A DNA stretch of 64,000 bases from a virus (lineage: Duplodnaviria; Heunggongvirae; Uroviricota; Caudoviricetes). Both the position numbers and the translations under genes were made by a program. Positions 4,348 through 64,000 of this stretch are shown one piece after another; position 1 is the first letter of the stretch; each line of letters opens with the position of its first letter. The notes beneath the pieces are model-generated. The model was not told where the DNA came from and did no database searches. It saw only the letters and a program-made list of their open reading frames with translations. The stretch covers positions 66,050 to 130,049 of IMG/VR virus record IMGVR_UViG_3300028042_000002. The stretch is one strand, 5' to 3'.

Positions 4348-5084
4348 TAAATTTAATCAAATTAAATAAATAATTATATGTAAATTAACAATACAGTTAA
4401 TATTTATTACATTATGGCTTACGCCTGCGTGTGATAATTCAAAGAAATAAAGTTAATTACATTATTAAGCTATTTAAAGTGGTTAAATAATTTAAATATA
4501 GCCTACTATCAATTTAATATAATAATTCCATTTAAGAGCATTTAACCTAATTAAATCGTATATTTACTATGGCGGAAATCTTATCAAATATAAATTAATA
4601 ATAAATAAATATATAATTATAAGAAATATGACTATGAACATAACAAATAATACAATAAACATGATGATATCAAGATAGATACCACTATAAACAATATAGG
4701 TTAAAGAATAATATAATCAAACATTAGAATAATAATAAATTAATATAATAACAATATAGAATAATATTTAAACAATATAGTTCACTATGGTAATGATAGG
4801 AATATAAATCATAAATGATTAACTGCTCTATACAGCAATACTATTATGTTGCTTTTTTTTATTTTTGGAGATGTTGACTAGAATGACAGCTAGACCCCCT
4901 ATATTAGCATTTACTAATGAAAACTTTCGTGGGATTTGACCCAAAATTAGAAATATTACAATGTAAGTTGTTGATTTATAAGTAATATTAAAAATAAATT
5001 AATAAAATATTGACAATTTAACCTGTATTCATATAAATAATGATATAATTAAAATTCTTATTGATAATAATTAAGGTTGATTAA

Positions 5085-5270
5085 ATGAATATTCCAGTTA
5101 AATTGAAAAAAAGTATTAAAGGTCGCCCGCGTATAGAAATTGATATTGATTTAGCAATAAAATATCTAAATGGTGGGTACAATCTTTCGAGTGTGGCGGA
5201 GGAGATGGGAATTGCAAAATCTACATTATGTTTGAAAGTTAAACAATATAAAGAAATCCATAAATCATAA
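5085..5270 (+). CDS. small HTH DNA-binding protein (module copy A)
   Basis: 'KGRPRIEIDIDLAIKYLNGGYNLSSVAEEMGIAKSTL' is a resolvase/IS630/AlpA-like HTH. Paralogs at 18316-18528 and 63163-63402. Confidence 0.6.
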   Translation: MNIPVKLKKSIKGRPRIEIDIDLAIKYLNGGYNLSSVAEEMGIAKSTLCLKVKQYKEIHKS

Positions 5271-5338
5271 ACATAAAAAAGCTAGAAAGGTAATTACATT
5301 TTACCAATCTAGCCAACATGTTCACATTAAATATTACA

Positions 5339-5655
5339 AGGCATCTATCGTAAGAGTCCCTACTTTTGCGAAAGCTCATTTTGGGCATCCCAGCCCAAGT
5401 TCGCGGCAAAAGCTTAACGGGACTAATTATAATCTTCGATGCCCCGATTCGTCCTGCGTCCGTGACGTCTTCGTACAAGTATCGTTTCACTCGATGAACT
5501 ACGACACCACTACCTCAAATGACCTTTACGGCGATGAGAGCTGTTTTTCACCTTCTTCGTCAGTTCACTCTCGTTCTCAACTACGAATGCGCTAAACAGC
5601 ATCGCCTATCGGGGACTAATCGCCTTCGTTTCACTCTCCATGGCGATCAGCGCAT
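5339..5655. other. GC-rich (about 50% GC) noncoding island; candidate structured RNA or origin with TTCACTC and CGGGACTAAT direct repeats
   Basis: Abrupt composition shift. Long imperfect hairpin (ggcatc..gatgcc, agtccc..gggact, cttttgc..gcaaaag). TTCACTC occurs three times. Confidence 0.45.
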
Positions 5656-7003
5656 GAACAAAACTTCTATTAAACATCTTCTTTTAAGCGAATTAAATAA
5701 ATATAAAACTCGTTTATCGGATGAACCATCATTATACATCAATAATACTATTTATAACAAGTTAAAAGTTGTGAATATTAATAATTTTAAGAAGTATTAC
5801 CCAAAATTAACCCGAGTTGAAATCACAAATTTATTATATCTTATTATAAATCATAACTTTATCCATTTAAAGCAAGATGATAAACAAGGTTATAATATCA
5901 TAAAAATTTATGAAGTTTCAGGAATAAACGTGCAAGTTGGCAGAAAGATATTTACTTCTAAATTATTTACCGAACTTTTAAAATTATTACTTGACAATGA
6001 AATTATTATCAAAGTTAAAAATTATCAAAGTAAGTCACACTCCAACCAATATAAATTAAATGATAATATTATTAGCAAGATGACCACATGCCAAGGTAAA
6101 ATTATTAAATTATCGCCATTCGTCCTAAAATATAAAATTAAATTTTGCACATTAAAAATAGTTAAAACTGTTAAAGATGATATATATCCATACAAATATT
6201 TATTATTAAGCACACTAAAAACTTTAAATACTGTCCAATTTCCAACCATTGAAGAAGTTGAAAAACGATTAGATGAGGCTGTTAAAAATGGTGAAAGTAA
6301 CAAAGGTAAAATATATAAAAATTATAATGATTATAGAAATCTTGTTGACAAATCTAAATATACAAACATTCAAAACATTAAAAAAGTGTTTTTATATTTA
6401 ACAACTGGATTGATATTTTCAAGGAGTGAAGAGTTTGGCAGAATTTATACATCATTTAATATGATACCAACTATCACTCGCAATATGTGTAAATTAAATA
6501 ATAATGAATTAGTTGGATTAGATTTTAATGCACTCCATCTTAATATTGCACAATCATTAGCAGTTAAACATTATGACCATGATATTAAAGATTATAATGA
6601 AATTACTCATGATAATATTGCATCCTATATGAAAATATCACGTCAAGAGGTCAAAATAGACAATTTAAGCCTACTTAACCGAAATTTGGAAGATGGGTAC
6701 GACTATAATAATAAACGTTGGGAAAAAGGCTTAATAGGAACTCCTACAGTAAATTACTTTTTAGAGTGCATCCCAGTTTTATATAATTATATTGTACAGA
6801 AAGGCGATAAAGGTATTACAAAATTTCTATTTAATATTGAAACTAAATTGATGGATAAAATTGCTATGAAATTGTTATATAGTGGTATTAATTTTATGTA
6901 TATTTTTGATGAGATAATGGTAGAGTCGAAGTATAAAATTAATGTTAGAAAGTTGATGCTGATGGAAGCTAAAAGAATGTGGATATTGGCAGGAGTTGGA
7001 TAA
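5654..7003 (+). CDS. large conserved protein of the 3-copy module (possible primase/replication-initiator component); start reset to MNKTS
   Basis: About 60% identity to the 61826-63166 ORF. The N-terminal extension in the ORF track lies in the GC island and is not conserved in the paralog. Confidence 0.55.
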   Translation: MNKTSIKHLLLSELNKYKTRLSDEPSLYINNTIYNKLKVVNINNFKKYYPKLTRVEITNLLYLIINHNFIHLKQDDKQGYNIIKIYEVSGINVQVGRKIFTSKLFTELLKLLLDNEIIIKVKNYQSKSHSNQYKLNDNIISKMTTCQGKIIKLSPFVLKYKIKFCTLKIVKTVKDDIYPYKYLLLSTLKTLNTVQFPTIEEVEKRLDEAVKNGESNKGKIYKNYNDYRNLVDKSKYTNIQNIKKVFLYLTTGLIFSRSEEFGRIYTSFNMIPTITRNMCKLNNNELVGLDFNALHLNIAQSLAVKHYDHDIKDYNEITHDNIASYMKISRQEVKIDNLSLLNRNLEDGYDYNNKRWEKGLIGTPTVNYFLECIPVLYNYIVQKGDKGITKFLFNIETKLMDKIAMKLLYSGINFMYIFDEIMVESKYKINVRKLMLMEAKRMWILAGVG

Positions 7004-7339: not shown

Positions 7340-7389
7340 AATATTTATTCCTGTTAGTTTGGTTTGCTTTATTGCTTAACATGCAAAGA

Positions 7390-7417
7390 AGTATACTCTT
7401 ATTTTCATTATTGTCTA
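7390..7417 (-). promoter_or_regulatory. early sigma70-like promoter (TAGACA-16-TATACT)
   Basis: Part of a conserved cassette. Confidence 0.5.
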
Positions 7418-7493
7418 GTTATTTATTCAATTATTTTAAATGAATTTAATTATTCAACAATATCAACAACTTACCAACTTAGTCATATAATAA

Positions 7494-7501
7494 TATAAAT
7501 A
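7494..7501 (+). promoter_or_regulatory. T4-late-type promoter TATAAATA
   Basis: TATAAATA lies 37 nt upstream of the 7538 ATG, in the conserved cassette 'catataataatataaatattaataacc'. Confidence 0.5.
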
Positions 7502-7537
7502 TTAATAACCATCCTCCAACCATATAATAATATAAAA

Positions 7538-8504: not shown

Positions 8505-8596
8505 AATCTTAATTCCTGTTAGTTGTTTAAGTTGTTTCGATATGAAAGAGTGTACTCTTATAATATCAACAAGTTACCAACTTAGTCATATAATAA

Positions 8597-8604
8597 TATA
8601 AATA
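8597..8604 (+). promoter_or_regulatory. T4-late-type promoter TATAAATA
   Basis: Conserved cassette upstream of 8632. Confidence 0.45.
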
Positions 8605-9918: not shown

Positions 9919-9968
9919 AATATTTAATCCTGTTAGTTAGTTAGGCTTTATTGCTTAACTTGGATACT

Positions 9969-9996
9969 ATTATACTCATTTTTTAATACATGTCAA
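9969..9996 (-). promoter_or_regulatory. early sigma70 consensus promoter (TTGACA-16-TATAAT)
   Basis: Minus strand reads TTGACAtgtattaaaaaatgagTATAAT. Identical to the one at 13316-13343. Confidence 0.6.
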
Positions 9997-10070
9997 CTAA
10001 ATTATGAAATTAATTAAAGTTATTTTAATTATCTAATAATATCAACAACTTACAAACAGTCATATAATAA

Positions 10071-10078
10071 TATAAATA
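10071..10078 (+). promoter_or_regulatory. T4-late-type promoter TATAAATA
   Basis: Conserved cassette upstream of 10119. Confidence 0.45.
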
Positions 10079-10118
10079 TTAACAACCATCTCCACACCGT
10101 ATAATAATATAATCAAAT

Positions 10119-11419: not shown

Positions 11420-11471
11420 AATATTTATTCCTGTTAGTTAATTAGTTGTTTAAGTTGCTTCGATATAAAAG

Positions 11472-11499
11472 AGTATACTCCCATTTTCACTATTGTCTA
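11472..11499 (-). promoter_or_regulatory. early promoter (TAGACA-16-TATACT)
   Basis: Conserved cassette. Confidence 0.5.
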
Positions 11500-11621
11500 G
11501 TTATTTATTCAATTATTTTAAAATAAATTAATTATCTAATAATATCAACAAGTTACCAACTTAGTCATATAATAATATAAATATTAATAACCATCAAATC
11601 ACTTTATAATAATATAAAACT

Positions 11622-12650: not shown

Positions 12651-12801
12651 AATTTTTAATCCTGTTAGGTTGCGGTTAAAAAGTTAACTAATTTGCTTAA
12701 CTTGGATACTATTATACTCATATTTTAACTATTATCTAGTTATTTATTCAATTATTTTAAAATGAATTTAATTATTCAACAATATCAACAACTTACCCTC
12801 A

Positions 12802-13241: not shown

Positions 13242-13315
13242 TTATTATAAATTTGATTGTAAGTTGTTGATATTATTAGATATTTAAATTCATTTAAAAT
13301 AATTGAATAATTTAG

Positions 13316-13622: not shown

Positions 13623-14516
13623 ATGGCTACACAAATCAAAGGTTTAATCGGTGGTACTCGTGCAACTAACTTTTTCAAAATTGACCCAGAATTAATTATT
13701 ATTCAAGAAGGGTTTAATCCTCGCGATAGTTCTAACATTGACCCACTTGAATTATATGAAAGTATTAAAGAAAATGGTGTAGTATCTCCACTTATCATCA
13801 AATTAGATAAAGACGGTAATGTACTTTTAGTTGACGGTGAACGTAGATTAACTACGGTTTTAAAATTGATTGAAGATGGTGTAGACATTCAATCTGTGCC
13901 ATGTTTAAAAATTAACAAATCTCAAGATAACGAAGTTGATTTGTTAATGATGGCAATGATTGCAAACGATAGCAAACAATTAACACCATTAGAATTTAGT
14001 GAGACCTTCGCTAGATTGTTAAAATATGGGTTAAAACCTGCTGAAATTGCTAAAAAAGTAGGTAAAAGTCGGGGATGGGTTGATAATATGATTATCTTAA
14101 ATAACCTTAATCCATCTTTGAAACAAGAATTAAGAAATGGTGTAATTACGTTAAATATTGCGTTGGATATTGTACGTGAAAATCAAGGTGATTATGAAGC
14201 CCAAAATGAAGATTTTAAAATCATTACTGAAAATGCTGAAATTATTACTGAAACTGTAATAAATGAAGATAATGAACCAGTTGAAAAAGTTGTTAAAACT
14301 AAATTATATTCAAAAGGGTCAATGAAGCCTGTTAAATTGGGTGTTGCTAAAGAAATTCTTAAGGCAGTTGCATTCAATGATGAAGAATTAGAAGATTTAG
14401 CCAATCTTAAACAACTTATTGATAAATATACAACCGATGATAAAAGTATTTCGAATGTTGAAATGAAAGCATTTGCACTTGGAATGATGGCGGCTAAAGG
14501 TAAATATATGGTTTAA
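13623..14516 (+). CDS. parB: ParB-like nuclease/partition domain protein
   Basis: N-terminal ParB box 'VDGERRLTTV', then an HTH 'KPAEIAKKVGKSRGWVDNMIIL'. 297 aa. Confidence 0.7.
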   Translation: MATQIKGLIGGTRATNFFKIDPELIIIQEGFNPRDSSNIDPLELYESIKENGVVSPLIIKLDKDGNVLLVDGERRLTTVLKLIEDGVDIQSVPCLKINKSQDNEVDLLMMAMIANDSKQLTPLEFSETFARLLKYGLKPAEIAKKVGKSRGWVDNMIILNNLNPSLKQELRNGVITLNIALDIVRENQGDYEAQNEDFKIITENAEIITETVINEDNEPVEKVVKTKLYSKGSMKPVKLGVAKEILKAVAFNDEELEDLANLKQLIDKYTTDDKSISNVEMKAFALGMMAAKGKYMV

Positions 14517-16773: not shown

Positions 16774-16961
16774 AATTATCAGAATTTAATAAAAGTAATG
16801 AAGATGCAAATCATCCATGTTATTTATGTAGAAATAGAATTATACATGATAATAAATATTGTAATTTTCATCCTAAATACGAACCTCATTGTATAATGTT
16901 GGTGTCACCATTTGAATTTTTAAATATGAATAAACTTTGTGATGCTATATCCTCTTCTTAA
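16770..16961 (+). CDS. small Cys/His-rich protein
   Basis: 'CYLC...CNFH' zinc-ribbon-like. Confidence 0.35.
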   Translation: MKLSEFNKSNEDANHPCYLCRNRIIHDNKYCNFHPKYEPHCIMLVSPFEFLNMNKLCDAISSS

Positions 16962-17400
16962 TACCTAATTCATATTCAGTCATTATCTTAAAATTTATGC
17001 CATGTTTAGTACAATATTCATTGGCATATTTCCATTTATCAGTATTCTTACGATAAGTCAATAATTCTTTTAATAATATTACTTTACGTTTACCTTTTTT
17101 TGGAACTGGTTCAATAGTTTCATGATATGGCTTAACTTCGATTAAATCTACTACAATTTCATCACTTTTATTACGATATTTTACTATAAAATCAGGGAAA
17201 TAACGTCTAACCTTTTTATCAACAGATGAATAATATCTTATTACTATGGTTTCACTACCCCACTCTAGGATATTTGGGTCTATGTCAAATCGTACCATCA
17301 ATTTCAATTCCCATGATGATCTATAGATTATATTTTTAACATTGCCTTTATATTTATCAGGATTTGAAGGTGTAAATCGACCTTTTTTAGCTTTATTCAT
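16945..17400 (-). CDS. PD-(D/E)xK-type nuclease-like protein (possible free-standing homing endonuclease)
   Basis: 'YFPDFIV...DLIEVKP' is a D...E.K motif. Lone minus-strand gene after plus-strand genes. Confidence 0.4.
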   Translation of the reverse strand: MNKAKKGRFTPSNPDKYKGNVKNIIYRSSWELKLMVRFDIDPNILEWGSETIVIRYYSSVDKKVRRYFPDFIVKYRNKSDEIVVDLIEVKPYHETIEPVPKKGKRKVILLKELLTYRKNTDKWKYANEYCTKHGINFKIMTEYELGIKKRI

Positions 17401-17628
17401 AATAATATTTATAATTATTTAATGGTTTAAATTTAATAATGATTTTAAAGTGGATAAGTTATTGAATACTATTTATTACTATGAAAAGATAAAACCTGCG
17501 TGTGATAATTCAAAGGCATTACTATATATTAATATAAATTTAGTACTGGATTAATATTGGGAATGGTTTTAAATTGGTTAATGTGTTAATAATATTTATT
17601 AAAATTATAATGTAATCCAGTTGAACAA

Positions 17629-17952
17629 TATTTATTACTATGGACGCTTCGCTTAGGTGTGCAAAATTCAAGGCATTATGATAAATTATTAGTTGATTAA
17701 TATTAAGCCATTTAAGCCAGTTGAATTATAATATCTACTACTTACTATTACTTTATGATTATGATTAAATTTAGCAATGGTTTTATAGTTGTTTGATATG
17801 GTAAAAGTTAGGTCATTATATTACATTGTAAGAATTGTATAATATTTATCAAAATTAATTAATATTAATAGAAGTAAGTCAAGTGGAAAATGTAATCAAT
17901 ATTATTCTTTCGAATTATCACACCAAAGCGAAGCGTCTAAAGTAATAAATTA
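17629..17952. repeat. about 320-bp noncoding element bounded by 45-bp inverted repeats (ATTTATTACT.TGGACGCTTCGCTTAGGTGTG.AAATTC); related direct copies at 17471-17521 and 4400-4445
   Basis: 17642-17661 'ggacgcttcgcttaggtgtg' pairs with 17921-17940 'cacaccaaagcgaagcgtc'. No ORF inside. Confidence 0.5.
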
Positions 17953-17969
17953 GTAATATGACCATTAAA

Positions 17970-18218
17970 GGGTCATTAATATTAAAATGGGTCATTGTCT
18001 CTAGCTGTTGATGTTATTAGTGTTTACTATACATAATGACCTAATGACCATATAAATTAATAAATATAATAATAATATAGTAGTAGTAAAACATATAACG
18101 TAAGTTGAATGGATATTATAGTCATTGGGTCATAATAACATATAAGTAGTTGATTTATATCATGTTTATATGATGACCCATTATTAATTTACTAACTATA
18201 TTAAATTGAAAGGGTCAC
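17970..18218. promoter_or_regulatory. cluster of at least 7 GGGTCA(T)/TGACC(C) repeats upstream of HTH gene (candidate operator/iteron array)
   Basis: Motif copies at 17970, 17989, 18035 (rc), 18044 (rc), 18127, 18175 (rc), 18212. Confidence 0.4.
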
Positions 18219-18315
18219 TAAATAATTTATATTGAAGATATTTATAATTTATTAAAGGTAATAATCATATTTATTATAAATACTGTTATAATAGAGTTTC
18301 ATAATAAAACGATAG

Positions 18316-18528
18316 GTGATAAAAATGGCTTTAGATGTTAATAAATTAGTAAAAAATATAAAAGGTGCAGGAGCTTATAAAGATGTTGATATGGTGGAGA
18401 TTATGGAGTTAAAGAAACAAGGTTACACATATTCAAGTATGGCAGAGCAATTAGGTATCACAAAAGTTACACTTTCTAGGAAAGTTGCAGAATATAAAAA
18501 AGAATTATTAAAACGTAAAGGAAATTAA
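18316..18528 (+). CDS. small HTH DNA-binding protein (module copy B)
   Basis: 'QGYTYSSMAEQLGITKVTLSRKVAEYKKE' is paralogous to the 5085 and 63163 proteins. Confidence 0.6.
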   Translation: MIKMALDVNKLVKNIKGAGAYKDVDMVEIMELKKQGYTYSSMAEQLGITKVTLSRKVAEYKKELLKRKGN

Positions 18529-18531
18529 AAC

Positions 18532-19725
18532 ATGATAAACCAATCAAATATGATAGATAAATCAGCATTAGAAATTTTTGAAATATTTTTAGATGATAAT
18601 TCACATAAAGCAGGTTATGAAAAATTCATTCATCCTGATGGAAATTATATTCCAATATCTGAAATACACGCAGAATTTGACGCATGGTGTTCCAAACTTG
18701 GAGTGTCTGCTAAAGTTTATACCAATAGAAAATTTAAACATACAATGGTGTTATACTACGTGAAATGGCTAAAGGATTATAAATTATATTTAAGTGAAAA
18801 ATTATCAAAATGTCCAATCTCAAACAATCAAACAGAGTGGAAAAAACTCCAAAAATTGACAGAATTTACAGATAATGACATCATCATTTATAAGGCGTTA
18901 ATATGGAAAATTAAAACCCAACTTATAACAAATAAACAAATCAAGATACAATTTCCAATGCCAGTATTATTCAGTACTAAACAAGGCTTGGGTAAATCAT
19001 ATTTTAATAAATTATTATGTGAACCATTAGGCGAACTTTCAATTGAACGTGATATTTCAGTTTTAAACGATGAAAATAATTCTAAATTATTTAAAGATAT
19101 GTTACTTATCAACTTTGATGAAATGGCTAGTCAAACTAAGGAAAGCTTAACAAACCTTAAGAGTATTTTAACTAAAGATGATATCCAATTTAGAGAAATT
19201 TATACAGCTAATCAGATTACAGTAAAAAAGATGTTTTGTAGTGTAGGTTCATCTAATAAATCATTACATGAAATTTTAAATGATACGACAGGCTCGCGTA
19301 GATTATGGCAAGTTAGTTTAATTAAATCAATATATAAGACTATTCATAGTATTGATTTTCTTGAACTGTATCGAGAAGTTGATCACAATAAACCATGTGA
19401 ACTAATGAATGATGAATGTTATACTAAAATAATGGATATTCAACAATCAACCCAGCGTAAAAAGGATATTGTTGAATATTGGATTGAAGCTTGGAATTGT
19501 AATATTAATTATGGTGATATGATAGAAGTTGATATTCCATTAAATAATAGTACATATACTTCTATGTATTTATATAAACATTTTGAAAATTGGTGTATAA
19601 TTAACAATGAAAAAGTATTATCACATAATAAATTTGGTAGAAGTGTTAAAAATTATTTATCAACTGTTTTTATTAAGCACCGTACAAGTAAATTTAAAGG
19701 TTACAAATTTATCACACCACAATAA
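18532..19725 (+). CDS. D5_N-like + VirE-family P-loop NTPase (P4-alpha-type primase-helicase C-terminal module)
   Basis: 'LYAEFDAWC' D5_N-like region. Walker A 'KQGLGKSYF', Walker B 'INFDEMAS', VirE signature 'NDTTGSRRLWQV'. Confidence 0.65.
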   Translation: MINQSNMIDKSALEIFEIFLDDNSHKAGYEKFIHPDGNYIPISEIHAEFDAWCSKLGVSAKVYTNRKFKHTMVLYYVKWLKDYKLYLSEKLSKCPISNNQTEWKKLQKLTEFTDNDIIIYKALIWKIKTQLITNKQIKIQFPMPVLFSTKQGLGKSYFNKLLCEPLGELSIERDISVLNDENNSKLFKDMLLINFDEMASQTKESLTNLKSILTKDDIQFREIYTANQITVKKMFCSVGSSNKSLHEILNDTTGSRRLWQVSLIKSIYKTIHSIDFLELYREVDHNKPCELMNDECYTKIMDIQQSTQRKKDIVEYWIEAWNCNINYGDMIEVDIPLNNSTYTSMYLYKHFENWCIINNEKVLSHNKFGRSVKNYLSTVFIKHRTSKFKGYKFITPQ

Positions 19726-19739
19726 ACAGGCACATTAAC

Positions 19740-19982
19740 ATGAACCAAAATCAATTAAAAATAATAGAAATTTCTTCATTTACATCATCTTTATATTGTT
19801 CTCAAGTATTATTTATGAATTTTATTAGTAGCAACTTTACCGACTATTTAATATTATTTTTAGCCATTGTACTTACAATTTTAACCATATTAAATTTAAA
19901 ATTAAGAAATGATATCAAGAAATTAGATATGGAATTAGGAGGGTTAGATTTACAACTTAATAATTATGCAAAAAAGTTGTAG
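19740..19982 (+). CDS. small membrane protein
   Basis: One TM segment with a coiled C-terminus. Confidence 0.4.
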   Translation: MNQNQLKIIEISSFTSSLYCSQVLFMNFISSNFTDYLILFLAIVLTILTILNLKLRNDIKKLDMELGGLDLQLNNYAKKL

Positions 19983-20110
19983 TAATTGTCAATGGTGGCA
20001 AAAAGTAAGACAAATTAAAGGTATTTGCAATCGTTATGATTATGGTTGGGTTAATTCTGATTATAATTGTAACGGGTGGCAAAGAATTAAAACTTATAAA
20101 AAGGTAAATT

Positions 20111-20413
20111 ATGATAAAAAATTTAAAAATTATGATTAGTGCAAATAGATTTAAAGGTGATTATAATGATACAATTATTTATGAATGCACCAAACCTAAA
20201 CATATTCATAAATTAATTAATTTTTTTGGAGTTGAAAAAAGTTACGATGATATTGGATATTTTGACGATAATATACCATTATTAGATGATAAAGGTGATA
20301 TTATAATTGATGAGCAAACCCTTAGACATTTAAAAACAGTTGAATTATTATTAAACGATGTGGAAGGTAATTATAATGCAACATATAGTTTGATTGTATT
20401 ACTCAAATATTGA
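20111..20413 (+). CDS. hypothetical protein
   Basis: ORF after an AAAGGTAAAT RBS. Confidence 0.4.
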   Translation: MIKNLKIMISANRFKGDYNDTIIYECTKPKHIHKLINFFGVEKSYDDIGYFDDNIPLLDDKGDIIIDEQTLRHLKTVELLLNDVEGNYNATYSLIVLLKY

Positions 20414-20578
20414 TATATAAAAAAGGTAAATCATGATGAAAATTAAAAAACAATGTAAAAATTGCTCTCATTGGGTTGAAAAATGTGAAATTGGATTATG
20501 TTTAAAGTATCCATACAAATGGACAGATTATAACCATAGTTGTATAAATTATAAACAAGTTAATAGAGGTAATATGTA

Positions 20579-20890
20579 ATGAGCATTCATAAATGTATCC
20601 AGTGTAATACCATAAAAGAATGTTATTCAAGCCTTAATAAAATTAACGATATAGTTGATTGTTGGATTTATATATGTAAAGATTGTCGAGATGATAATAT
20701 TAAATCAAATATTGAAAATTTTAATGATGACACAAGTTACACAAATGAAATAATATGCCCTCATTGCGGCTACGTTGAAGATGTTAGCTGGGAATATGCT
20801 GATAATAATGATAGAATCAATTGTCCTGAATGTGATAACAACTTTAATTATAATCGTAATATTGAAGTAACATATTCAACTAATAAATAA
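20579..20890 (+). CDS. zinc-ribbon protein (4 CxxC)
   Basis: CIQC, CKDC, CPHCG and CPEC motifs. Confidence 0.45.
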   Translation: MSIHKCIQCNTIKECYSSLNKINDIVDCWIYICKDCRDDNIKSNIENFNDDTSYTNEIICPHCGYVEDVSWEYADNNDRINCPECDNNFNYNRNIEVTYSTNK

Positions 20891-20900
20891 GGTAAATACA

Positions 20901-21182
20901 ATGATGAAAAATGGTAAACTGTCTGCCGAAGAATGTACAATGAAATTAAAAGATAACGATATTAACAATAATTTTTCATATTCAAACTGGTTTATATATA
21001 GTAATGACGAATTTAATTATGCTTTTTATCGTAATTATGGTTATATTAAAGCATGGGTTACACCTAAATCATTATTATTAAAATATTATAACACTTTTAA
21101 AGCTAAATGTTTACATGATAATAATTTCCCCGTTTACATAATGAATGAACAAGCTAACCAATATGAACTAAAACTAAAATGA
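20901..21182 (+). CDS. hypothetical protein (domain shared with 21196-21798)
   Basis: 'NYAFYRNYGYIKAWVTPKSLLLKYYNTFK' aligns with 'NNAFYKYYGYIKSKFTPNFILLKFYNRFK'. Confidence 0.45.
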   Translation: MMKNGKLSAEECTMKLKDNDINNNFSYSNWFIYSNDEFNYAFYRNYGYIKAWVTPKSLLLKYYNTFKAKCLHDNNFPVYIMNEQANQYELKLK

Positions 21183-21195
21183 AAAGGTAAATAAA

Positions 21196-21798
21196 ATGAA
21201 AAATATTCAATATTATTATATTAAAATTGAAGTTTATTCTGATGGTAAAGCATTAGTAACCTACAATAATCAAAAAAAATTAGATTATTGTTATAATAAA
21301 TTAACGTTAGAAAAATGTATTGAAGATAAAGGAAGATTTTCAGATGAAGAAATAGGATATAATTCATTCATTAAAAATAGGTATAAATTATATACACTAA
21401 GATTGAATGTAATAGAACGTGAAAATTATGTAGAATTTGATATCAATCTCAATGATAGTCCAGTTGATATTTATTTTAATATTTGTGAAAATTTAAGTCA
21501 TATTAAAATTGAAAATACTATTAAAAATATGAAGAAAACTAAAATTGAGGCGGAAGAACATTATATGAGATTAGTTGATAATACAACTTTAGAATTAAAA
21601 ACGTTTATATCATCAAATGAAGATTTTAATAATGCATTTTATAAATATTATGGATATATTAAATCGAAATTCACACCTAATTTCATATTATTAAAATTTT
21701 ATAACCGATTTAAATATAATGCTTGCTATGTACCTTCAAATATTCGTATAATGGAACAACAATATTACAAATATAAGTTAAATGATTTACTCAAATAA
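21196..21798 (+). CDS. hypothetical protein with duplicated domain
   Basis: C-terminal domain is paralogous to the previous ORF. Confidence 0.45.
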   Translation: MKNIQYYYIKIEVYSDGKALVTYNNQKKLDYCYNKLTLEKCIEDKGRFSDEEIGYNSFIKNRYKLYTLRLNVIERENYVEFDINLNDSPVDIYFNICENLSHIKIENTIKNMKKTKIEAEEHYMRLVDNTTLELKTFISSNEDFNNAFYKYYGYIKSKFTPNFILLKFYNRFKYNACYVPSNIRIMEQQYYKYKLNDLLK

Positions 21799-21937
21799 TA
21801 GCGAGAATAATTAAAATGACTAAATTGTTAATAAATACTTACACTTTTAGTGTTGTTGTTTATATCAACAATATAACTAAAATAATGTAACTTGACAATG
21901 GAAGTAACATATTCAACTAATAAATAAGGTAAATATT

Positions 21938-22162
21938 ATGAATAAATTTTCAGAACTACCAAATTTTAAATGTCTTTATTGCGACACAAAAATATATATT
22001 AATAATACTCAACTTAAAAAATATTCTGTAACTTGTCCCACATGTCATACTGAAATAATAGCAACGTTAACTATATCTAAAAATTGTGCAACTGGTAAAG
22101 ATTATTATATCTTCACCAAAATTAAATTATATAATAAACATTTAAAAGTTTTTATTGAATAG
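21938..22162 (+). CDS. zinc-ribbon protein
   Basis: CLYC and CPTC motifs. Confidence 0.4.
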   Translation: MNKFSELPNFKCLYCDTKIYINNTQLKKYSVTCPTCHTEIIATLTISKNCATGKDYYIFTKIKLYNKHLKVFIE

Positions 22163-22163
22163 A

Positions 22164-22655
22164 TTAAACATTAACCCACTTTTCAAACGTAAAAGTAACT
22201 GTACTAATAATAACCTCATTTAACATGGAATATCCCATATTTATCTGGGGGGCATCAAGTGGATAAGCATTAATTAATTTTATAGCATAATCCACACTCC
22301 CATCTAATTTATCAAGATGTTCAATTGTAATATCCTTAACATAATCATCGTAGAATTTAATTAAACCTGTATTATTATCAATAACATCATTAAGCCAGTT
22401 ATCAAAGAATAACTTTTGTGGCAAACCTTTCGTATTAATAAATGAAAATGTAACATCTTGAAATACATTACTAATTGGTAATTTAAATTTATTATTATAA
22501 TGTTGATTATTAGACGTTAAAAAATTTCTACTTGGTAATGATGAAGTGTTGCACATCATAGTTAAACTTTCATCGCCATTTGGAAATATAATATTATATC
22601 TTGATGGACTTGCTAACCCTTCACTAATGTTGGCTATAAATTTATCAATATTCAT
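22164..22655 (-). CDS. gp3: tail-tube-fold protein (gp19 paralog; gp3-like tail completion/sheath stabiliser by size and neighbourhood)
   Basis: N-terminus 'IDKFIANISEGLASPSRYNIIFP' parallels the gp19 N-terminus 'INEFIANFQGGGARPNLYRISF'. 163 aa. Confidence 0.45.
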   Translation of the reverse strand: MNIDKFIANISEGLASPSRYNIIFPNGDESLTMMCNTSSLPSRNFLTSNNQHYNNKFKLPISNVFQDVTFSFINTKGLPQKLFFDNWLNDVIDNNTGLIKFYDDYVKDITIEHLDKLDGSVDYAIKLINAYPLDAPQINMGYSMLNEVIISTVTFTFEKWVNV

Positions 22656-23284
22656 GAATTTTTAACCATTGCTCGACTATCCTTCCACACTTCACGTTTA
22701 TCAGCTTTCTTAAATTGTTCAACGGGTAAAAATACGACAATTTCCCATTCATCAAAATCAACTTGAACAAAATTAGACCTAACGTGAGACCATAAATACC
22801 TTTTAATAGTAGGTTGATATGGAGTACCCTTTAAACTTTGTAATAATTGATAGCTTATTTTAATATAATCTTCATTTTTACCACGGTCAATAGTTTTAGA
22901 TTTTAACTTTAATAATTCATCAAGTAATTTAGCTCTTAATAAGTTAGGCAAATAATGAAAATTTAACCCTAAAAAACCATTATCAGTATATCCAATTGGA
23001 ATAACTAGAGGGAAAGTGTCGTAATATTTCAATACTTTTTTCCACTTTGGGTCATAAATATAAAAATACATAAATCCTATTCTTGGTAATGAATGAAATG
23101 TAAATTTATCACGACTTGATTTATCTGCTCCACCTTTTTTAATTATACTAAAAAACCATGAATTGCCTTTCTTTTTACCTTTAATTTTATCGGTGAACCA
23201 CGATTTAGCATTTTTTATCTTCGCACGAATGCCATTATTGGTTAAACTTTTTAACTTATCTGATAGTGATTTAGTTTTCTTCAT
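22652..23284 (-). CDS. gp2/gp4-like head completion / DNA end-protector candidate
   Basis: Adjacent to the gp3-like gene, as in the T4 3-2-4 cluster. Motif 'YDPKWK..YYDTFPLV...GFLGLNFHYLP'. Assignment is from memory of the family, not verified. Confidence 0.3.
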   Translation of the reverse strand: MKKTKSLSDKLKSLTNNGIRAKIKNAKSWFTDKIKGKKKGNSWFFSIIKKGGADKSSRDKFTFHSLPRIGFMYFYIYDPKWKKVLKYYDTFPLVIPIGYTDNGFLGLNFHYLPNLLRAKLLDELLKLKSKTIDRGKNEDYIKISYQLLQSLKGTPYQPTIKRYLWSHVRSNFVQVDFDEWEIVVFLPVEQFKKADKREVWKDSRAMVKNS

Positions 23285-24954: not shown

Positions 24955-25407
24955 ATGAAAATTTTAAAATACGTAGAAACTTCATTTAGAGGTAAACCAA
25001 GTTTCATCATTAAAATGAATGGAATTAAATATTTATCAAATGGTTGTGTATTTGTTGAATATAATAATAAAAATGTTAAGAAGTTAATTAATAAATATGA
25101 TTGTAGAAGTTTTATTGATGAATTAATGCAAAGTAAATCTATTAAATTTAAAAATTTAACAAATGGTCGTTATATGTTCTATGGTTGTACATTACCGGAC
25201 AATTTTAACCCTAATTTAGAAAAGTTAACATGTGGTTATTCGATGTTTGAAGGTTGCACATTACCTGACAATTTTAATCCTAATTTAGAAAATTTAACAG
25301 ATGGTCGTTATATGTTCTATGGTTGTACATTATCTGATAAATTTAACCCTAATTTAGAAAAGTTAACAAAAGGTCTTTTCATGTTTGAATGTTGTACACG
25401 TTATTAA
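24955..25407 (+). CDS. BspA-like leucine-rich-repeat (LRR_5-type) protein
   Basis: 3.5 tandem 23-aa repeats 'NLTNGRYMFYGCTLPDNFNPNLEKLT'. Confidence 0.5.
   Translation: MKILKYVETSFRGKPSFIIKMNGIKYLSNGCVFVEYNNKNVKKLINKYDCRSFIDELMQSKSIKFKNLTNGRYMFYGCTLPDNFNPNLEKLTCGYSMFEGCTLPDNFNPNLENLTDGRYMFYGCTLSDKFNPNLEKLTKGLFMFECCTRY
25153..25404 (+). repeat. 69-bp tandem repeat, about 3.6 copies (encodes LRR units)
   Basis: Near-identical DNA units visible directly in the sequence. Confidence 0.7.
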
Positions 25408-61256: not shown

Positions 61257-61802
61257 TTACATTTTAGATATAAATTTAAAGCATCTTAAACCGCCCTTTC
61301 GACATTTATTAAATTGACCACTTAAATAATTATTTAAATCTCGACTAAATTTAATATTACTAATAATTTTAATATTGCCAACTGTACACCCGTTTTCGAA
61401 ATGTTTATATAAGTTGGAGGATGAATAAATTTTATTAGGTTCTGCTTGAATAATTGGTTCACATTCACCATAATTTACATTATCAAGCCAATCTATATAC
61501 AATAATTCAACAATAGTCTTTTTACGTTGGGTTTCATAATTCTTTAATTCATCTTTATGTTCCTTTAACCATTCTTTATGATGTAAAACAAGTGTAAGTT
61601 TAAACTTAGTTTTATTATAATATTTACGGGGCACTTTAAGGTCAAAACACCACGCATCAAATTCTGCATAAAGTTCGGATTGAAAAATTTCATCATCATT
61701 TAAATCTATAAATTTTAAATATCCTGTTTTATATTCACGAAAATCCAAAAAAGTTTGAAATATTTCTAATGGTGTTTTATTTTCTATTGTTGTCATATTC
61801 AT
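61257..61802 (-). CDS. truncated D5_N-like fragment (paralog of N-terminus of 18532-19725; helicase part missing)
   Basis: 'LYAEFDAWCFDL' is shared with the paralog's 'IHAEFDAWCSKL'. Ends before the Walker A region. Confidence 0.5.
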   Translation of the reverse strand: MNMTTIENKTPLEIFQTFLDFREYKTGYLKFIDLNDDEIFQSELYAEFDAWCFDLKVPRKYYNKTKFKLTLVLHHKEWLKEHKDELKNYETQRKKTIVELLYIDWLDNVNYGECEPIIQAEPNKIYSSSNLYKHFENGCTVGNIKIISNIKFSRDLNNYLSGQFNKCRKGGLRCFKFISKM

Positions 61803-61825: not shown

Positions 61826-63166
61826 TTAGCTTACATTGGATAAAATATTTAAATTTCTGCTACAGTTAATCATCGTATCATATAGGACTATTTTATTTTT
61901 AATTTCAACCATTAATTCATCAAATACATATAAAAAAGACATACCTGAATATAATAATACCTTGGCAATCTTATCCATTAATGAACTTTCATTATTAAAT
62001 AAAAATTTAGTAATACCTTTATTACCCATTTCCAATATATAATTATATAAAACTGGAATATGACGTTGAATATAATTCATAGTTGGAGTATTTAATGAGC
62101 CTTTCTCCCATCGTTCATTTTTATAATCATAACCATCATTTAAATTTCTATTAAGGATGCTAAGATTGTCTATTTTGACTGATTGGCGGGTAACATTCAT
62201 AGAGTTTGCAATATTATCATGAGTTATTTCATTATAATCATTTATATTATGGTTGTAGTGATTAACTGCCAAAGCTTGTGCGATATTAAGATGTAAACCA
62301 TTAAAATCTAATCCAACTAATTTATTATTGTTAAGTTTGCACATGTTACGGGCAATGGTTGGTAATAAATTAAATGATGTATAAATTCTGCCAAAGTCTT
62401 TACTAATTGAGAATATTAAATCATTGATTAAGTAGTTGAAAGTGTTTTTAGAGTTTTCAATATCAATATATTTACTTTTATCTTCCATTTTAATATATTG
62501 TTTATGGTTTAAATATACTCGACCCTTGTTAATTTCGCCATTCTCAACCGCTAATTCTAACCTTCTTTCAAATTCTTCAATAGTTGGAAATGTAATATCT
62601 CTGTAAGTATAAATACAACCTAATAATAAATGTAAATATTTGTACTCTGCGTTTGCAATAATATTATTTAATTTTAATATAGAGGATTTAGTTTTATATT
62701 TAGTTACTCGTGGTGATAATCTAATATCTTTATGTTTACAATTATAACGTTTACTTATGATATTATCATTTAATTTATATTTATTTGAACTTTTACCTAC
62801 TTTATACGATGCAGTCTTATAAATAATATTGTTATTGGTTAATAATTTTAATAATCGTGGAAATAATATCCTATTGAATATATTTTTACCATTTTCAAAA
62901 TTTATTCCAGCCTCTTCTGCAATAATAACATTTGTATCTATGCGTTCATCTCTTTTTACGCTAATAAAATTATTCTGAATTAATAGATACATCATATCGG
63001 TAACATCTTTCTTACTATATGAAGTGTTACCAATTTTAAATTCTTTAACTTTAATCTTAAATAATTCCCTATATATTGCATTATTAGCATATATGTAATT
63101 ATTTTTATCCAATGTCTTTTTATATTCAATTACAGCATTTTTTAATTTGTGTTTAATATCAATCAT
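61826..63166 (-). CDS. large conserved protein of the 3-copy module (paralog of 5654-7003)
   Basis: About 60% identity over about 330 aa ('GRIYTSFN..PTI.RNMCKLNNN.LVGLDFN.LHLNIAQ'). Confidence 0.6.
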   Translation of the reverse strand: MIDIKHKLKNAVIEYKKTLDKNNYIYANNAIYRELFKIKVKEFKIGNTSYSKKDVTDMMYLLIQNNFISVKRDERIDTNVIIAEEAGINFENGKNIFNRILFPRLLKLLTNNNIIYKTASYKVGKSSNKYKLNDNIISKRYNCKHKDIRLSPRVTKYKTKSSILKLNNIIANAEYKYLHLLLGCIYTYRDITFPTIEEFERRLELAVENGEINKGRVYLNHKQYIKMEDKSKYIDIENSKNTFNYLINDLIFSISKDFGRIYTSFNLLPTIARNMCKLNNNKLVGLDFNGLHLNIAQALAVNHYNHNINDYNEITHDNIANSMNVTRQSVKIDNLSILNRNLNDGYDYKNERWEKGSLNTPTMNYIQRHIPVLYNYILEMGNKGITKFLFNNESSLMDKIAKVLLYSGMSFLYVFDELMVEIKNKIVLYDTMINCSRNLNILSNVS

Positions 63167-63402
63167 TTTTTTAATTTTCCTAAATTTGGTTTCTTTGCTT
63201 TCATTGTTCTTTTTGGTTTTAAATTATGTTCCTTTCTATACGCATGAACCCTCTTATATAACGTGCATTTATTTACACCTAATGCATCGGCAATACTTTC
63301 ATGAGTATATCCTTCGTCCTTCAATTTCATAACCAATTCAATATCAATAACAACACCCCATGCAGTTTGTTTTAATTTACTTCTATCTAAATCCGAATTC
63401 AT
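63163..63402 (-). CDS. small HTH DNA-binding protein (module copy C)
   Basis: 'EGYTHESIADALGVNKCTLYKRVHAYRKE' is paralogous to the other two HTH proteins. Confidence 0.6.
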   Translation of the reverse strand: MNSDLDRSKLKQTAWGVVIDIELVMKLKDEGYTHESIADALGVNKCTLYKRVHAYRKEHNLKPKRTMKAKKPNLGKLKK

Positions 63403-63904
63403 AATATTACCTAATTTGTTTAATTGTTATGGTATTATAACAGTATTTATACATATTGAATTTAAAGTTGAATATAAAGTGTAAAAAATTATATAATAAT
63501 ATAAATATCTACCAATTTTGAAAAGTTTTAATAAATTAATTATTATATAAATCAATGACTTATAATTTTGTAATTCTGAACGTTTTATTATTACAAAAGT
63601 TGAAAATGTATAGTCTAGCTGTCATTCTAATAATGTTTACCCAAAATTGAAAATGACCCACATTATATATATGGGGCATATGTAAATATGCTTTATTAAT
63701 TTGTTTCATAAAGAAACATAATTATCAAATATTCTTTAAGAAAACATTGTACTACTATGATAAATATTATTGATATGATTATTGTCTTACTATACTGTTA
63801 AATATTGAATGGATTATCTTGATAGTACTAATCTTGATTATTATGATAATAAATTTAATTTAAATTTTGATTATATGTCAGAATATAGTGAATATATAGT
63901 GAGA

Positions 63905-63994
<90 letters not shown>

Positions 63995-64000
63995 TACTTT

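Follow-up and report, generated by a model that had tools for sequence, protein, structure and literature searches.

A candidate origin-like control region ahead of an SF3 helicase gene in an uncultured T4-like phage

Introduction

T4-like phages are thought to replicate by means of gp43, gp41 and gp61, from R-loop and recombination-dependent origins, and with a replisome of their own they have no obvious need for a further replication module. To our knowledge, the selfish DNA of these phages comprises homing endonucleases and introns only. We analysed a 64,000-nucleotide stretch of a viral genome (the window) that carries several copies of a cassette composed of a leader, a small helix-turn-helix (HTH) protein, and an SF3 helicase of the VapE/D5 type and/or a compact polymerase with a PolA fold (X). 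What does the long non-coding leader of one of these cassettes, cassette B, do for the genes behind it? Here we examine its repeats, promoters and inverted repeat, and weigh a role as a replication origin against transcriptional control, mobility, a transposon insertion and chance.

Results

Leader B separates a T4 core gene from a helicase cassette

The window belongs to a T4-like phage, with genes for gp4, gp2, a gp3-like protein, gp53, gp23, gp18, gp19, portal and terminase identified. Its gp23 is at most 51% identical to that of any cultured phage, and judged by these sequences the genome that hosts the cassettes is that of an uncultured, deeply divergent T4-like phage. The region around leader B is organized as follows.

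16945–17400, minus strand: gp4 head-completion homologue (phrog_218 'head closure', E=2e-52)
17401–18315: non-coding leader of cassette B (leader B), 915 bp
18325–18528, plus strand: HTH_B, a 67-aa helix-turn-helix protein (Pfam HTH_8, E=3.6e-5)
18532–19725, plus strand: VapE_B, an intact SF3 (VapE/D5-type) helicase (Pfam VapE-like, E=8e-18; DUF5906; Pox_D5)
19740–22162, plus strand: about nine small ORFan genes in the same orientation as cassette B, filling the gap to the next two genes
22164–23284, minus strand: gp3-like and gp2 genes

The gp4 homologue, which also matches Pfam Tn7_TnsA-like_N (E=1.3e-20) and, at the DNA level, cyanophage gp4 genes, is a T4-core gene that flanks leader B and is transcribed away from it. 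On the other side, leader B is bounded by the HTH gene, whose ATG lies at 18325. A first-pass annotation had described a non-coding leader of about 900 bp, and this description holds: no ORF in leader B exceeds 43 aa, and an independent gene call on an identical ENA contig leaves the gap empty. The possibility of a decayed gene was dropped, as blastx against all other window ORFs found no pseudogene remnant. Rfam searches of leader B gave no match at gathering thresholds or at E≤1, and no intrinsic terminators were found within it. GC skew across the window tracks gene orientation and is uninformative on origins.

Look-ups of identical gp4, HTH_B, P0001 and P0006 returned one ENA contig only, 100% identical to the window, and no population variants or empty sites were found among them. 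IMG/VR searches with VapE_B and P0002 found no locus, identical sequences to P0002 and P0003 were looked up without a record being returned, and metagenome scans for relatives gave no match.

Cassette B retains the only intact helicase of the window

The HTH gene opens every cassette and is intact in all three copies in the window (5085–5270 in A, 18325–18528 in B, and 63163–63402 on the minus strand in C). HTH_B is of the Fis / resolvase-DBD / sigma region 4 type, and the paralogues are about 40% identical, with a fairly conserved recognition helix (K-x-T-L-x-x-K/R-V).

The protein downstream of HTH_B had been labelled a VirE NTPase, a name that should give way to VapE/D5-like SF3 helicase. 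Its Walker A (GLGKS), Walker B (INFDE), sensor (SSN) and arginine finger (SRR) motifs are intact. The AF2 model reaches a pLDDT of 79.7, with values of 38–69 in the C-terminal part, and its best Foldseek matches are PriRep1, the closest, and also the NrS-1 helicase, MPXV E5 / vaccinia D5 and papillomavirus E1 (E values of 2e-9 to 1e-6). As modelled, VapE_B folds like the SF3 replicative helicases that load at origins. Neither Pfam nor Foldseek recognised a primase domain, and no origin-binding domain was found in the AF2 model, whose C-terminal part is poorly predicted.

Among the three window cassettes, only B has an intact helicase; cassette C keeps a 181-aa helicase remnant that lacks the NTPase core, and cassette A has none. 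The X paralogues of cassettes A and C are 54% identical. Two further helicase paralogues are recorded on the 130-kb contig: P0002, which is intact, and P0003, whose Walker motifs have decayed. The contig also encodes a protein identical to X of cassette C. The genome thus holds at least three paralogous cassettes and probably five.

The X polymerase family comprises 183 cluster representatives and has no Pfam model. Sequence searches of the PDB with X and VapE_B gave no match, as did tblastn of X against cultured phages. In other phage contigs, genes for X homologues likewise follow long non-coding gaps at divergent junctions, and one member of the family carries a NUMOD1 domain, typical of homing endonucleases. 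Previously uncharacterised, and with no solved relative detectable by sequence, this polymerase family merits attention.

A GGTCAT array brackets and abuts AT-rich DNA

The window contains 25 copies of GGGTCA where 8.4 would be expected, and five of these lie at 17970–18217. GGTCAT is the better core: leader B holds eight exact copies, whereas the frequency of the motif in the remainder of the window predicts 0.38 (Poisson p=8e-9), and seven of them fall inside 300 bp, compared to a maximum of three in 100 Markov simulations. The motif cluster described at first pass is borne out. When the variants AGTCAT and GGTCAC are included, ten sites extend over 17811–18217. At least seven GGGTCA/TGACC motifs had been reported immediately before the HTH gene. 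The motifs are present, but not directly ahead of that gene: about 108 bp separate the last site from the HTH ATG.

17811–17816: tenth, outlying (G/A)GTCA(T/C) site
17958–18217, both orientations: array of nine (G/A)GTCA(T/C) sites, at 17958 (−), 17971 (+), 17990 (+), 18036 (−), 18044 (−), 18120 (+), 18128 (+), 18173 (−) and 18213 (+)
18050–18118: AT-rich spacer between inverted tandem GGTCAT pairs, 85.5% AT
18218–18282: candidate unwinding element, about 92% AT, the most AT-rich 65 bp of leader B

The inverted tandem pairs ATGACCtaATGACC and AGTCATtgGGTCAT flank the spacer at 18050–18118 on both sides, and the candidate unwinding element is situated between the last GGTCA site and the promoter; the mean AT content of leader B is 78%. 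Spacings within the array are irregular (8, 13, 19, 40, 45, 46 and 76 bp) and orientations are mixed. Regular, helically phased direct repeats of the kind found in classical plasmid iterons (about 22 bp) were not found in leader B. The dyad symmetry of the array is approximate and only modestly supported (score 40 vs 28.8 ± 5, reached by 14 of 500 shuffles). A parS/KorB-type role tied to the ParB-like gene at 13623–14516 was also considered and set aside, no palindromic parS-like site being seen.

Leader B alone among the three window leaders displays a dense, ten-site array in contact with AT-rich DNA. Cassette B, with its intact helicase, has ten sites, cassette C, with its remnant, about two degenerate ones, and cassette A, without a helicase, one, such that a full array is found with the intact helicase alone; this correlation covers three cassettes of one genome, with leader C cut by the window end.

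We tentatively regard the GGTCAT array as best read as an origin-like binding-site array for the cassette helicase or the HTH protein. The GGTCAT sites would be bound by the helicase, by way of N- or C-terminal domains specific to its cassette, by the HTH protein, or by both, and the bound protein would melt the adjacent AT-rich DNA and load there, making the array a cassette-specific origin. The same sites could possibly also serve autoregulation. The first-pass proposal of iterons or operators in an origin/regulator arrangement finds support in the non-random array, the AT-rich DNA, and the HTH and intact helicase genes downstream.

Conserved putative promoters and the case for transcriptional control

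Additional short elements of leader B are shared with the other leaders or with the rest of the phage.

17406–17413, minus strand: exact match to the TATAAATA box, directly upstream of gp4
18000–18008, minus strand: ACAGCTAGA box, present once per leader in all three cassettes and nowhere else in the window
18142–18159, plus strand: TAAGTAGTTGATTTATA box, common to leaders A, B and C
18275–18292, plus strand: predicted proximal promoter TATAAATAcTGtTATAAT, in which an extended −10 is joined to a late-type TATAAATA

TATAAATA is the T4 late-promoter consensus, and we presume its promoter role from T4. All three window leaders end in the same predicted composite (dual) promoter, TATAAATAnTGnTATAAT, ahead of the HTH gene; a 19-mer of this proximal promoter is identical between B and C, and cassette A has the same pattern. 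The core of TAAGTAGTTGATTTATA, GTAAGTTGTTGAT, recurs phage-wide in association with promoters, and elsewhere it precedes TATAAATA by about 18 nt. The ACAGCTAGA box is inverted in leader B relative to A and C, and the 17-mer TAGAATGACAGCTAGAC is identical in leaders A and C. Identical 17–21-mers are shared by the leaders pairwise, and about 250 bp of leader A align collinearly with leader B. At the level of sequence, these comparisons show the three window leaders to be diverged homologues that retain short identical boxes. IMG/VR searches with GTGTGATAATTCRAAG and AGAATGACAGCTAGAC gave 9 and 14 single matches, which we judged to be chance because no clear HTH, X or VapE homologue lies nearby; one marginal HTH_C match (E=7e-4) was noted.

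These elements bear on the main rival to the origin reading, a purely transcriptional role with no origin in leader B, which we consider somewhat unlikely. The GGTCAT sites would then act as operators or enhancers on which the HTH protein, or some other regulator of phage or host, works, and the 50-bp boxes described below would be extra promoters. Such a role would suit an HTH gene that comes first in every cassette with its recognition helix fairly conserved, the presence of GGGTCA-type sites in all three leaders, the supply of promoter-like elements (TATAAATA on both strands, TGnTATAAT, TGTGATAAT and the phage-wide GTAAGTTGTTGAT), and the long gaps at divergent junctions ahead of X homologues elsewhere. 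The layout of the array argues otherwise. Its nearest site is about 70 bp upstream of the −10, most others lie 110–330 bp upstream and none overlaps the promoter, which makes the operator reading weak for most sites, since they do not occupy operator positions. Ten sites over 400 bp are also excessive for a simple operator, and array size tracks the helicase, not the HTH gene, which is intact in all three cassettes.

The arms of the inverted repeat are copies of a leader box

Leader B holds three of the four copies of an approximately 50-nt box, the fourth being in leader A.

4402–4444, plus strand: box A1, in cassette A, 21 of 21 bases identical to B1
17471–17515, plus strand: box B1, consisting of ATTTATTAC, 20–24 variable bases, then GTGTGATAATTCAAAG
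17630–17679, plus strand: box B2, the left inverted-repeat arm, with a degenerate −10-like hexamer (GCAAAA)
17680–17900: inverted-repeat interior, 221 bp, an imperfect palindrome collinear with leader A
17901–17950, minus strand: box B3, the right inverted-repeat arm, with TGTGATAAT intact on the minus strand

An inverted repeat bounding about 320 bp, a direct copy of its unit and a further copy in leader A had all been reported before, and each is confirmed with its boundaries corrected to those given above. The arms are 50 nt long, 78% complementary and 221 nt apart, with a core of 29/32 matches (blastn-short E=1.7e-6). By plain scoring, the inverted repeat beats 197 of 200 dinucleotide shuffles, a moderate result when taken alone; it is validated by the recurrence of the box in B1 and A1. 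Leaders A and B have 21 of 21 bases in common, CCTGCGTGTGATAATTCAAAG (E=3.4e-7).

Every box copy in the window lies in a cassette leader. Box B1 includes the extended −10-like TGTGATAAT and was flagged as a TG-extended promoter-like site; TGTGATAAT is present in three of the four boxes, with a poor −35 (9/12 matches overall). Because of this −10-like element, the most likely role of the boxes, judged from their sequence, is that of a distal promoter or protein-binding site. At the distal end of the leader, they may act as cassette-boundary control boxes.

The segment at 17630–17950 had been interpreted as a MITE-like non-autonomous transposon inserted in leader B. Its 50-nt terminal inverted repeats around a small non-coding segment of about 320 bp do resemble a MITE, but the sequence comparisons largely refute this reading, which we rate as highly improbable. 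The interior is collinear with, and homologous to, the paralogous leader A (4372–4620 aligned with 17603–17849, score 108 vs a shuffle maximum of 81), and the box copied in the arms is found again, in direct orientation, at 17471 and 4402. No target-site duplication is present at the arm ends, where the flanks (ending in GTTGAACAAT on the left and beginning with TAGTAATATG on the right) share only AAT. Nor does the segment have the dispersed copies or parent transposon of a MITE: the window holds no transposase and no more copies, the arm core has 0 matches in IMG/VR, and its four matches in GTDB are unrelated single ones in 185,579 reference genomes, at chance level. The interior contains nested inverted repeats and folds into a long hairpin (z=−4.9 and −4.3). 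Since it is collinear with leader A, the "320-bp element" would be the ancestral leader with one box inverted; we propose that it arose by local inverted duplication of the box around ancestral leader DNA.

Another account, in which local duplications in a hyperplastic, AT-rich region left the repeats behind as debris without function, also appears very unlikely. Chance repeats are common in AT-rich DNA, 3 of 200 shuffles reach the inverted-repeat score, and the region holds many weak repeats. Against this stand the GGTCAT enrichment and the perfectly conserved 17–21-mers, which persist in diverged leaders beside proteins only about 40–55% identical and so point to purifying selection.

The boxes and inverted repeat could instead be recombination or mobility ends of a selfish, self-copying cassette, copied in a homing-like manner, by box-mediated homologous recombination as proposed for promoter-early stem-loop (PeSL) cassettes, or by replicative transposition through the cassette polymerase and helicase. 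The number of paralogous cassettes in one genome and their varied states of decay fit this idea, as does their placement: each is inserted in reverse orientation beside unrelated genes, the type-1 box lies 55–70 bp from the flanking gene in A and B (55 bp for A1, about 70 bp from gp4 for B1), A–B homology begins right at the flanking start codon, and cassette B splits the late genes gp3-like/gp2 from gp4. The NUMOD1 domain of one X-family member points the same way. We nonetheless think mobility ends improbable, as the far ends of cassettes A and B have no matching box or inverted repeat, and searches of the cassettes turned up no integrase, transposase or homing endonuclease. The paralogues are, moreover, only 40–55% identical, which implies that the copies are old. 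Terminal inverted repeats at the level of the whole cassette were looked for and rejected, being absent at the far ends of A and B.

Discussion

Our preferred interpretation, held with some reserve, is that leader B controls, in cis, copy B of a replication-type cassette that this genome carries several times over, and that it probably functions as a replication origin. The cassettes may have either of two meanings for phage biology. One possibility is that they serve a divergent T4 relative as dedicated, protein-primed-style origin modules; the other is that they are replicative parasites of a lytic phage and constitute a new class. Leader B is the best candidate for the cis site at which such a module acts, which makes the question directly testable.

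The stronger form of the parasite idea, which treats every cassette as an autonomous selfish replicon within the genome of a lytic T4-like phage, seems unlikely to us. Each cassette would then possess an origin (GGTCAT or CAATATAG arrays), a specificity factor in the HTH protein, an SF3 helicase and a PolA-fold polymerase, and would over-replicate or self-copy within the phage genome, leaving decayed copies behind. Such elements would be a phage-borne counterpart of satellites or giant-virus transpovirons.

Comparison with known systems

Iteron arrays serve the SF3 helicase initiators of phage P4 and of papillomavirus or SV40. The origin of satellite phage P4 pairs the alpha protein with ori/crr octamer iterons, and that of SV40 large T antigen combines GAGGC pentamers, an imperfect palindrome and an AT tract. 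Leader B resembles the P4, SV40 and papillomavirus E1 origins in having a 5–8-bp motif in both orientations, close to AT-rich DNA and an SF3 helicase gene, with an imperfect palindrome adjoining the array, and VapE_B shares the helicase fold. It differs in that its ten sites are irregularly spaced over about 400 bp, that VapE_B has no detected origin-binding or primase domain, and that the module belongs to the genome of a lytic T4-like phage, where it is present in several copies undergoing decay.

The replication modules of satellites and staphylococcal elements include PICI/SaPI alpA or pri-rep-ori, SCCmec PriRep1, and PLE RepA with iterons (PMC7145576). As in these modules, a small DNA-binding protein gene precedes a helicase-type initiator gene, with a repeat-rich non-coding origin (here a candidate) nearby, and SCCmec PriRep1 is the best structural match of VapE_B. 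From the satellite-type gene set, the HTH protein and SF3 helicase are present, a primase domain was not detected and the origin is putative. Unlike those elements, the cassettes lack genes for packaging or capsid redirection and do not reside in a bacterial chromosome; no integrase was found in or near them, and they are flanked by T4 core genes. Here the array precedes the genes instead of following them, and polymerase X has no counterpart in those elements.

The orf56/orf904 operon of the crenarchaeal plasmid pRN1 similarly pairs a small DNA-binding regulator with an SF3 (D5-like) replication protein, and essential cis regions flank the operon (PMC4234260). In pRN1, however, the origin is a stem-loop downstream of the operon, and ORF904 is a single protein that unites prim-pol, helicase and a winged helix. 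The cassettes encode their polymerase, which has a PolA fold and is no prim-pol, separately from the helicase, and one is often present without the other.

Finally, the 50-bp boxes invite comparison with the PeSL cassettes of T4-like phages (PMC4122927, PMC2839356). Identity with PeSLs as defined in PMC4122927 was rejected, as the four leader boxes share no hairpin (z-scores −1.6 to +0.6) and thus lack the conserved stem-loop. The boxes further differ in having no adjacent Shine-Dalgarno sequence and start codon, the next co-oriented gene being 700–850 bp away, and in numbering only four copies, all in cassette leaders. What they have in common with PeSLs is their nature as short, conserved boxes with a putative promoter, repeated in plastic regions of a T4-like genome, and their position at the borders of inserted gene blocks.

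Genomic setting and the cassette family

The window (25% G+C) derives from a deeply divergent T4-like myovirus. It codes for the large terminase, portal, gp23 (E=7e-117), gp18 and gp19, together with homologues of gp53 and a neck protein, and gp23 shares at most 51% identity with any cultured phage. An ENA metagenome contig (ERZ27262682:k141_1386850) is 100% identical over 8550-29725; database look-ups returned no other samples, strain variants or close relatives, and the analysis covers one genome. A ParB-like protein gene (13623-14516, +; ParB_N, HTH_ParB and KorB matches) lies 3 kb upstream of cassette B, and an ORF at 24955-25407 contains a 69-bp unit three times in tandem (25143-25398; copies 77-86% identical).

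Cassettes A, B and C, paralogous units of a leader, a small HTH gene and an SF3 helicase and/or protein X (a compact PolA-fold polymerase), were located by tblastn with local proteins. The three HTH paralogues found in the window share ~40% identity.

Genes of the cassettes and flanking homologues
5085-5270 (+), HTH gene of cassette A
5654-7003, protein X gene of cassette A (X_A, 449 aa)
16945-17400 (-), gp4 head completion homologue (phrog_218, E=2e-52)
18325-18528 (+), HTH gene of cassette B
18532-19725, intact helicase gene of cassette B (VapE_B)
22164-23284 (-), homologues of gp2 and a gp3/gp19-like protein
61257-61802 (-), 181-aa helicase remnant of cassette C
61826-63166, protein X gene of cassette C (X_C)
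63163-63402 (-), HTH gene of cassette C

X_C is 54% identical to X_A. The 181-aa ORF, from which the NTPase core is deleted, aligns with VapE_B residues 1-84 and 307-395; it is a helicase in decay or else a fragment retained for DNA binding or as an adaptor. The cassette-B helicase has two further paralogues, both 39-41% identical to it: P0002 (400 aa) is intact, and in P0003 (288 aa) the Walker motifs have decayed. Both are recorded on a contig of 130 kb that also codes for a protein identical to X_C, and which therefore represents the same or a near-identical genome. The genome has at least three cassettes and, with these two counted, probably at least five, in different states of decay.

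VapE_B matches the Pfam families VapE-like (8e-18), DUF5906 and Pox_D5, and its AF2 model (pLDDT 79.7, poor beyond residue 300, in the C-terminal domain) is closest to PriRep1, the NrS-1 helicase, poxvirus D5/E5 and papillomavirus E1; these matches and this model similarity identify it as an SF3 replicative-helicase-type protein. Protein X has no match in Pfam, PHROG, NCBIfam or PDB sequences. Its family comprises 183 cluster representatives, its AF2 model is confident (pLDDT 91.7), and residues D290, K334 and D419, at motif A-, B- and C-like positions, are invariant.

Across 17 loci, X genes mostly stand at divergent junctions, behind gaps of 200-1400 bp. The nearest outside homologue (31% identity; locus L003, 1100-2160) is preceded by ~770 bp of mostly non-coding DNA in which promoter-like units (GTTGTATCTTTGTAC) are duplicated and hairpin-plus-T-run elements occur several times. 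In cassette A, the ~390 bp between the HTH gene and the real X_A start (5262-5653) are much more G+C-rich than their surroundings, are missing from cassette C and fold far beyond shuffles (-101 kcal/mol, z=-4.1). This stretch, within which the ENA contig ends (window 5352), has no match in Rfam, IMG/VR or the phage database; it may represent a structured RNA or DNA of foreign origin.

The leaders and their common elements

The 915-bp leader B (17401-18315) is non-coding, as the first-pass annotation had it: its longest ORF is 43 aa, an independent gene caller placed no gene in it, and neither a gene remnant (blastx) nor an Rfam match was found there. Judged from sequence comparison, the leaders conserve a set of elements despite strong divergence. 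In A and B, 55-70 bp separate a distal box from the divergently oriented gene that flanks the leader. ACAGCTAGA occurs once per leader, flipped in B, and nowhere else in the 64 kb; a 17-mer containing it is identical between A and C. The leaders also have in common TAAGTnGTTGATTTATA, whose core, GTAAGTTGTTGAT, is a phage-wide motif (17 matches with at most two mismatches, 4 expected) found outside the leaders ~18 nt upstream of the TATAAATA boxes of structural genes. A composite promoter, TATAAATAnTGnTATAAT, stands ~30 bp ahead of every HTH start, with a 19-mer identical in B and C.

Between structural genes, repeated intergenic cassettes (7385-7537, 8556-8604, 9964-10116, 11467-11619, 12689-12797 and 13259-13271) each have ATCAACAA(C/G)TTAC ~18 nt upstream of TATAAATA, which suggests that late-type promoters of this phage have an upstream element. 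At the window edge (63900-64000), which cuts leader C short, two poly(T) runs of ~35-50 nt on the + strand, near the ENA contig end at 63927, either arose in assembly or form a genuine homopolymer of leader C.

A family of 50-bp boxes

The inverted repeat reported earlier in leader B is present, with 50-nt arms (17630-17679 / 17901-17950) that are 78% complementary, separated by 221 nt and matching at 29 of 32 positions in the G+C-containing core. Taken by itself it is only moderately significant, because 3 of 200 dinucleotide shuffles equal its score under plain match/mismatch scoring. Its arms belong to a family of four ~50-bp boxes, each consisting of ATTTATTAC, 20-24 variable bases and GTGTGATAATTCAAAG, which includes the two further copies noted on first pass (B1, direct, and A1). 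A1 and B1 have 21 of 21 bases in common.

Boxes
4402-4444 (+), box A1, leader A
17471-17515 (+), box B1, leader B
17630-17672 (+), box B2, leader B
17908-17950 (-), box B3, leader B

The repeat had been taken to bound a 320-bp MITE-like insertion, an identity that we reject as highly improbable. Leader A (4372-4620) is collinear with leader B (17603-17849) across box B2 and most of the supposed interior (alignment score 108; shuffles 56 ± 8, maximum 81), which makes the interior ancestral leader DNA; the arms copy a box that is also found in direct orientation. The segment has no target-site duplication and no additional copies in the window or IMG/VR, and 185,579 reference genomes gave only four single matches of the kind expected by chance. 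Over its full length, the segment forms a long, imperfect palindrome (nested inverted repeats; hairpin folds z=-4.9 and -4.3), best explained by local inverted duplication. The boxes might be ends at which a selfish cassette recombines or moves, a reading favoured by the multi-copy, decaying and reverse-oriented state of the cassettes, but the far ends of cassettes A and B carry no matching box and no recombinase was found, and we consider this unlikely.

A GGTCAT array adjoining the HTH and helicase genes

The GGGTCA cluster recognized on first pass withstood comparison with background: the motif is found 25 times in the window, where 8.4 are expected, with five occurrences at 17970-18217. 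GGTCAT is a sharper core and the top enriched hexamer of leader B, which has eight copies where the rest of the window predicts 0.38 (p=8e-9); seven fall inside 300 bp, where simulations give at most 3. Counting two one-base variants, ten sites run from 17811 to 18217, in both orientations. Inverted tandem pairs, ATGACCtaATGACC (18036-18049) and AGTCATtgGGTCAT (18120-18133), flank an 85.5% AT spacer, and a 92% AT tract (18218-18282) comes after the last site. Overall dyad symmetry is only marginal (score 40 versus 28.8 ± 5; reached by 14 of 500 shuffles). A large array is found in leader B alone; about one related site occurs in leader A and about two in the part of leader C preceding the window end. 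A different small array is present in leader A, where three of the six CAATATAG of the window lie within 82 bp (4692-4780; p=7e-6); it may be the counterpart for cassette A.

Leader B is thus a conserved, non-coding region of several boxes in which a 6-7-bp motif forms a strongly non-random array, next to AT-rich DNA and to the HTH and intact SF3 helicase genes. That its repeats are functionless debris seems very unlikely. SF3 initiators, P4 alpha, SV40 large T and papillomavirus E1 among them, act at short motifs that occur in both orientations next to AT-rich DNA and a palindrome. On this ground, and because array size tracks helicase state across the three cassettes of one genome, we tentatively propose that the array may be a cassette-specific origin, a candidate site at which the cassette's own helicase and/or HTH protein would bind and load, possibly with autoregulation. 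Purely transcriptional sites and boxes, the main rival, are favoured by the HTH protein in every cassette and the many promoter-like elements; for most sites, however, the distance to the downstream promoter is too great for a simple operator, which argues for the origin, and we consider the rival the less likely of the two. The iterons or operators in an origin/regulator arrangement proposed on first pass are supported by the non-random array, AT-rich DNA and adjoining genes, but phasing and orientation are not those of a classical iteron origin, and the region cannot be classed as one.

Comparison with known systems

Two other identities were rejected: the cassette region has no integrase and is located in a phage genome, unlike a satellite, and the leader region has neither the stem-loop nor the adjacent start codon of the promoter-early stem-loop cassettes (PeSL) of T4-like phages (PMC4122927). 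The closest functional analogues include the origin-plus-SF3-helicase modules of P4 and of SaPI/PICI and SCCmec elements (PriRep1), the origin-plus-helicase module of PLE with its RepA iterons (PMC7145576), the pRN1 plasmid operon, which pairs a small regulator with a helicase-containing Rep (PMC4234260), and papovavirus origins. Leader B is best described as a variation on the pairing of an initiator gene with a neighbouring repeat-array origin or operator, here in an unusual host, a lytic T4-like phage with several copies.
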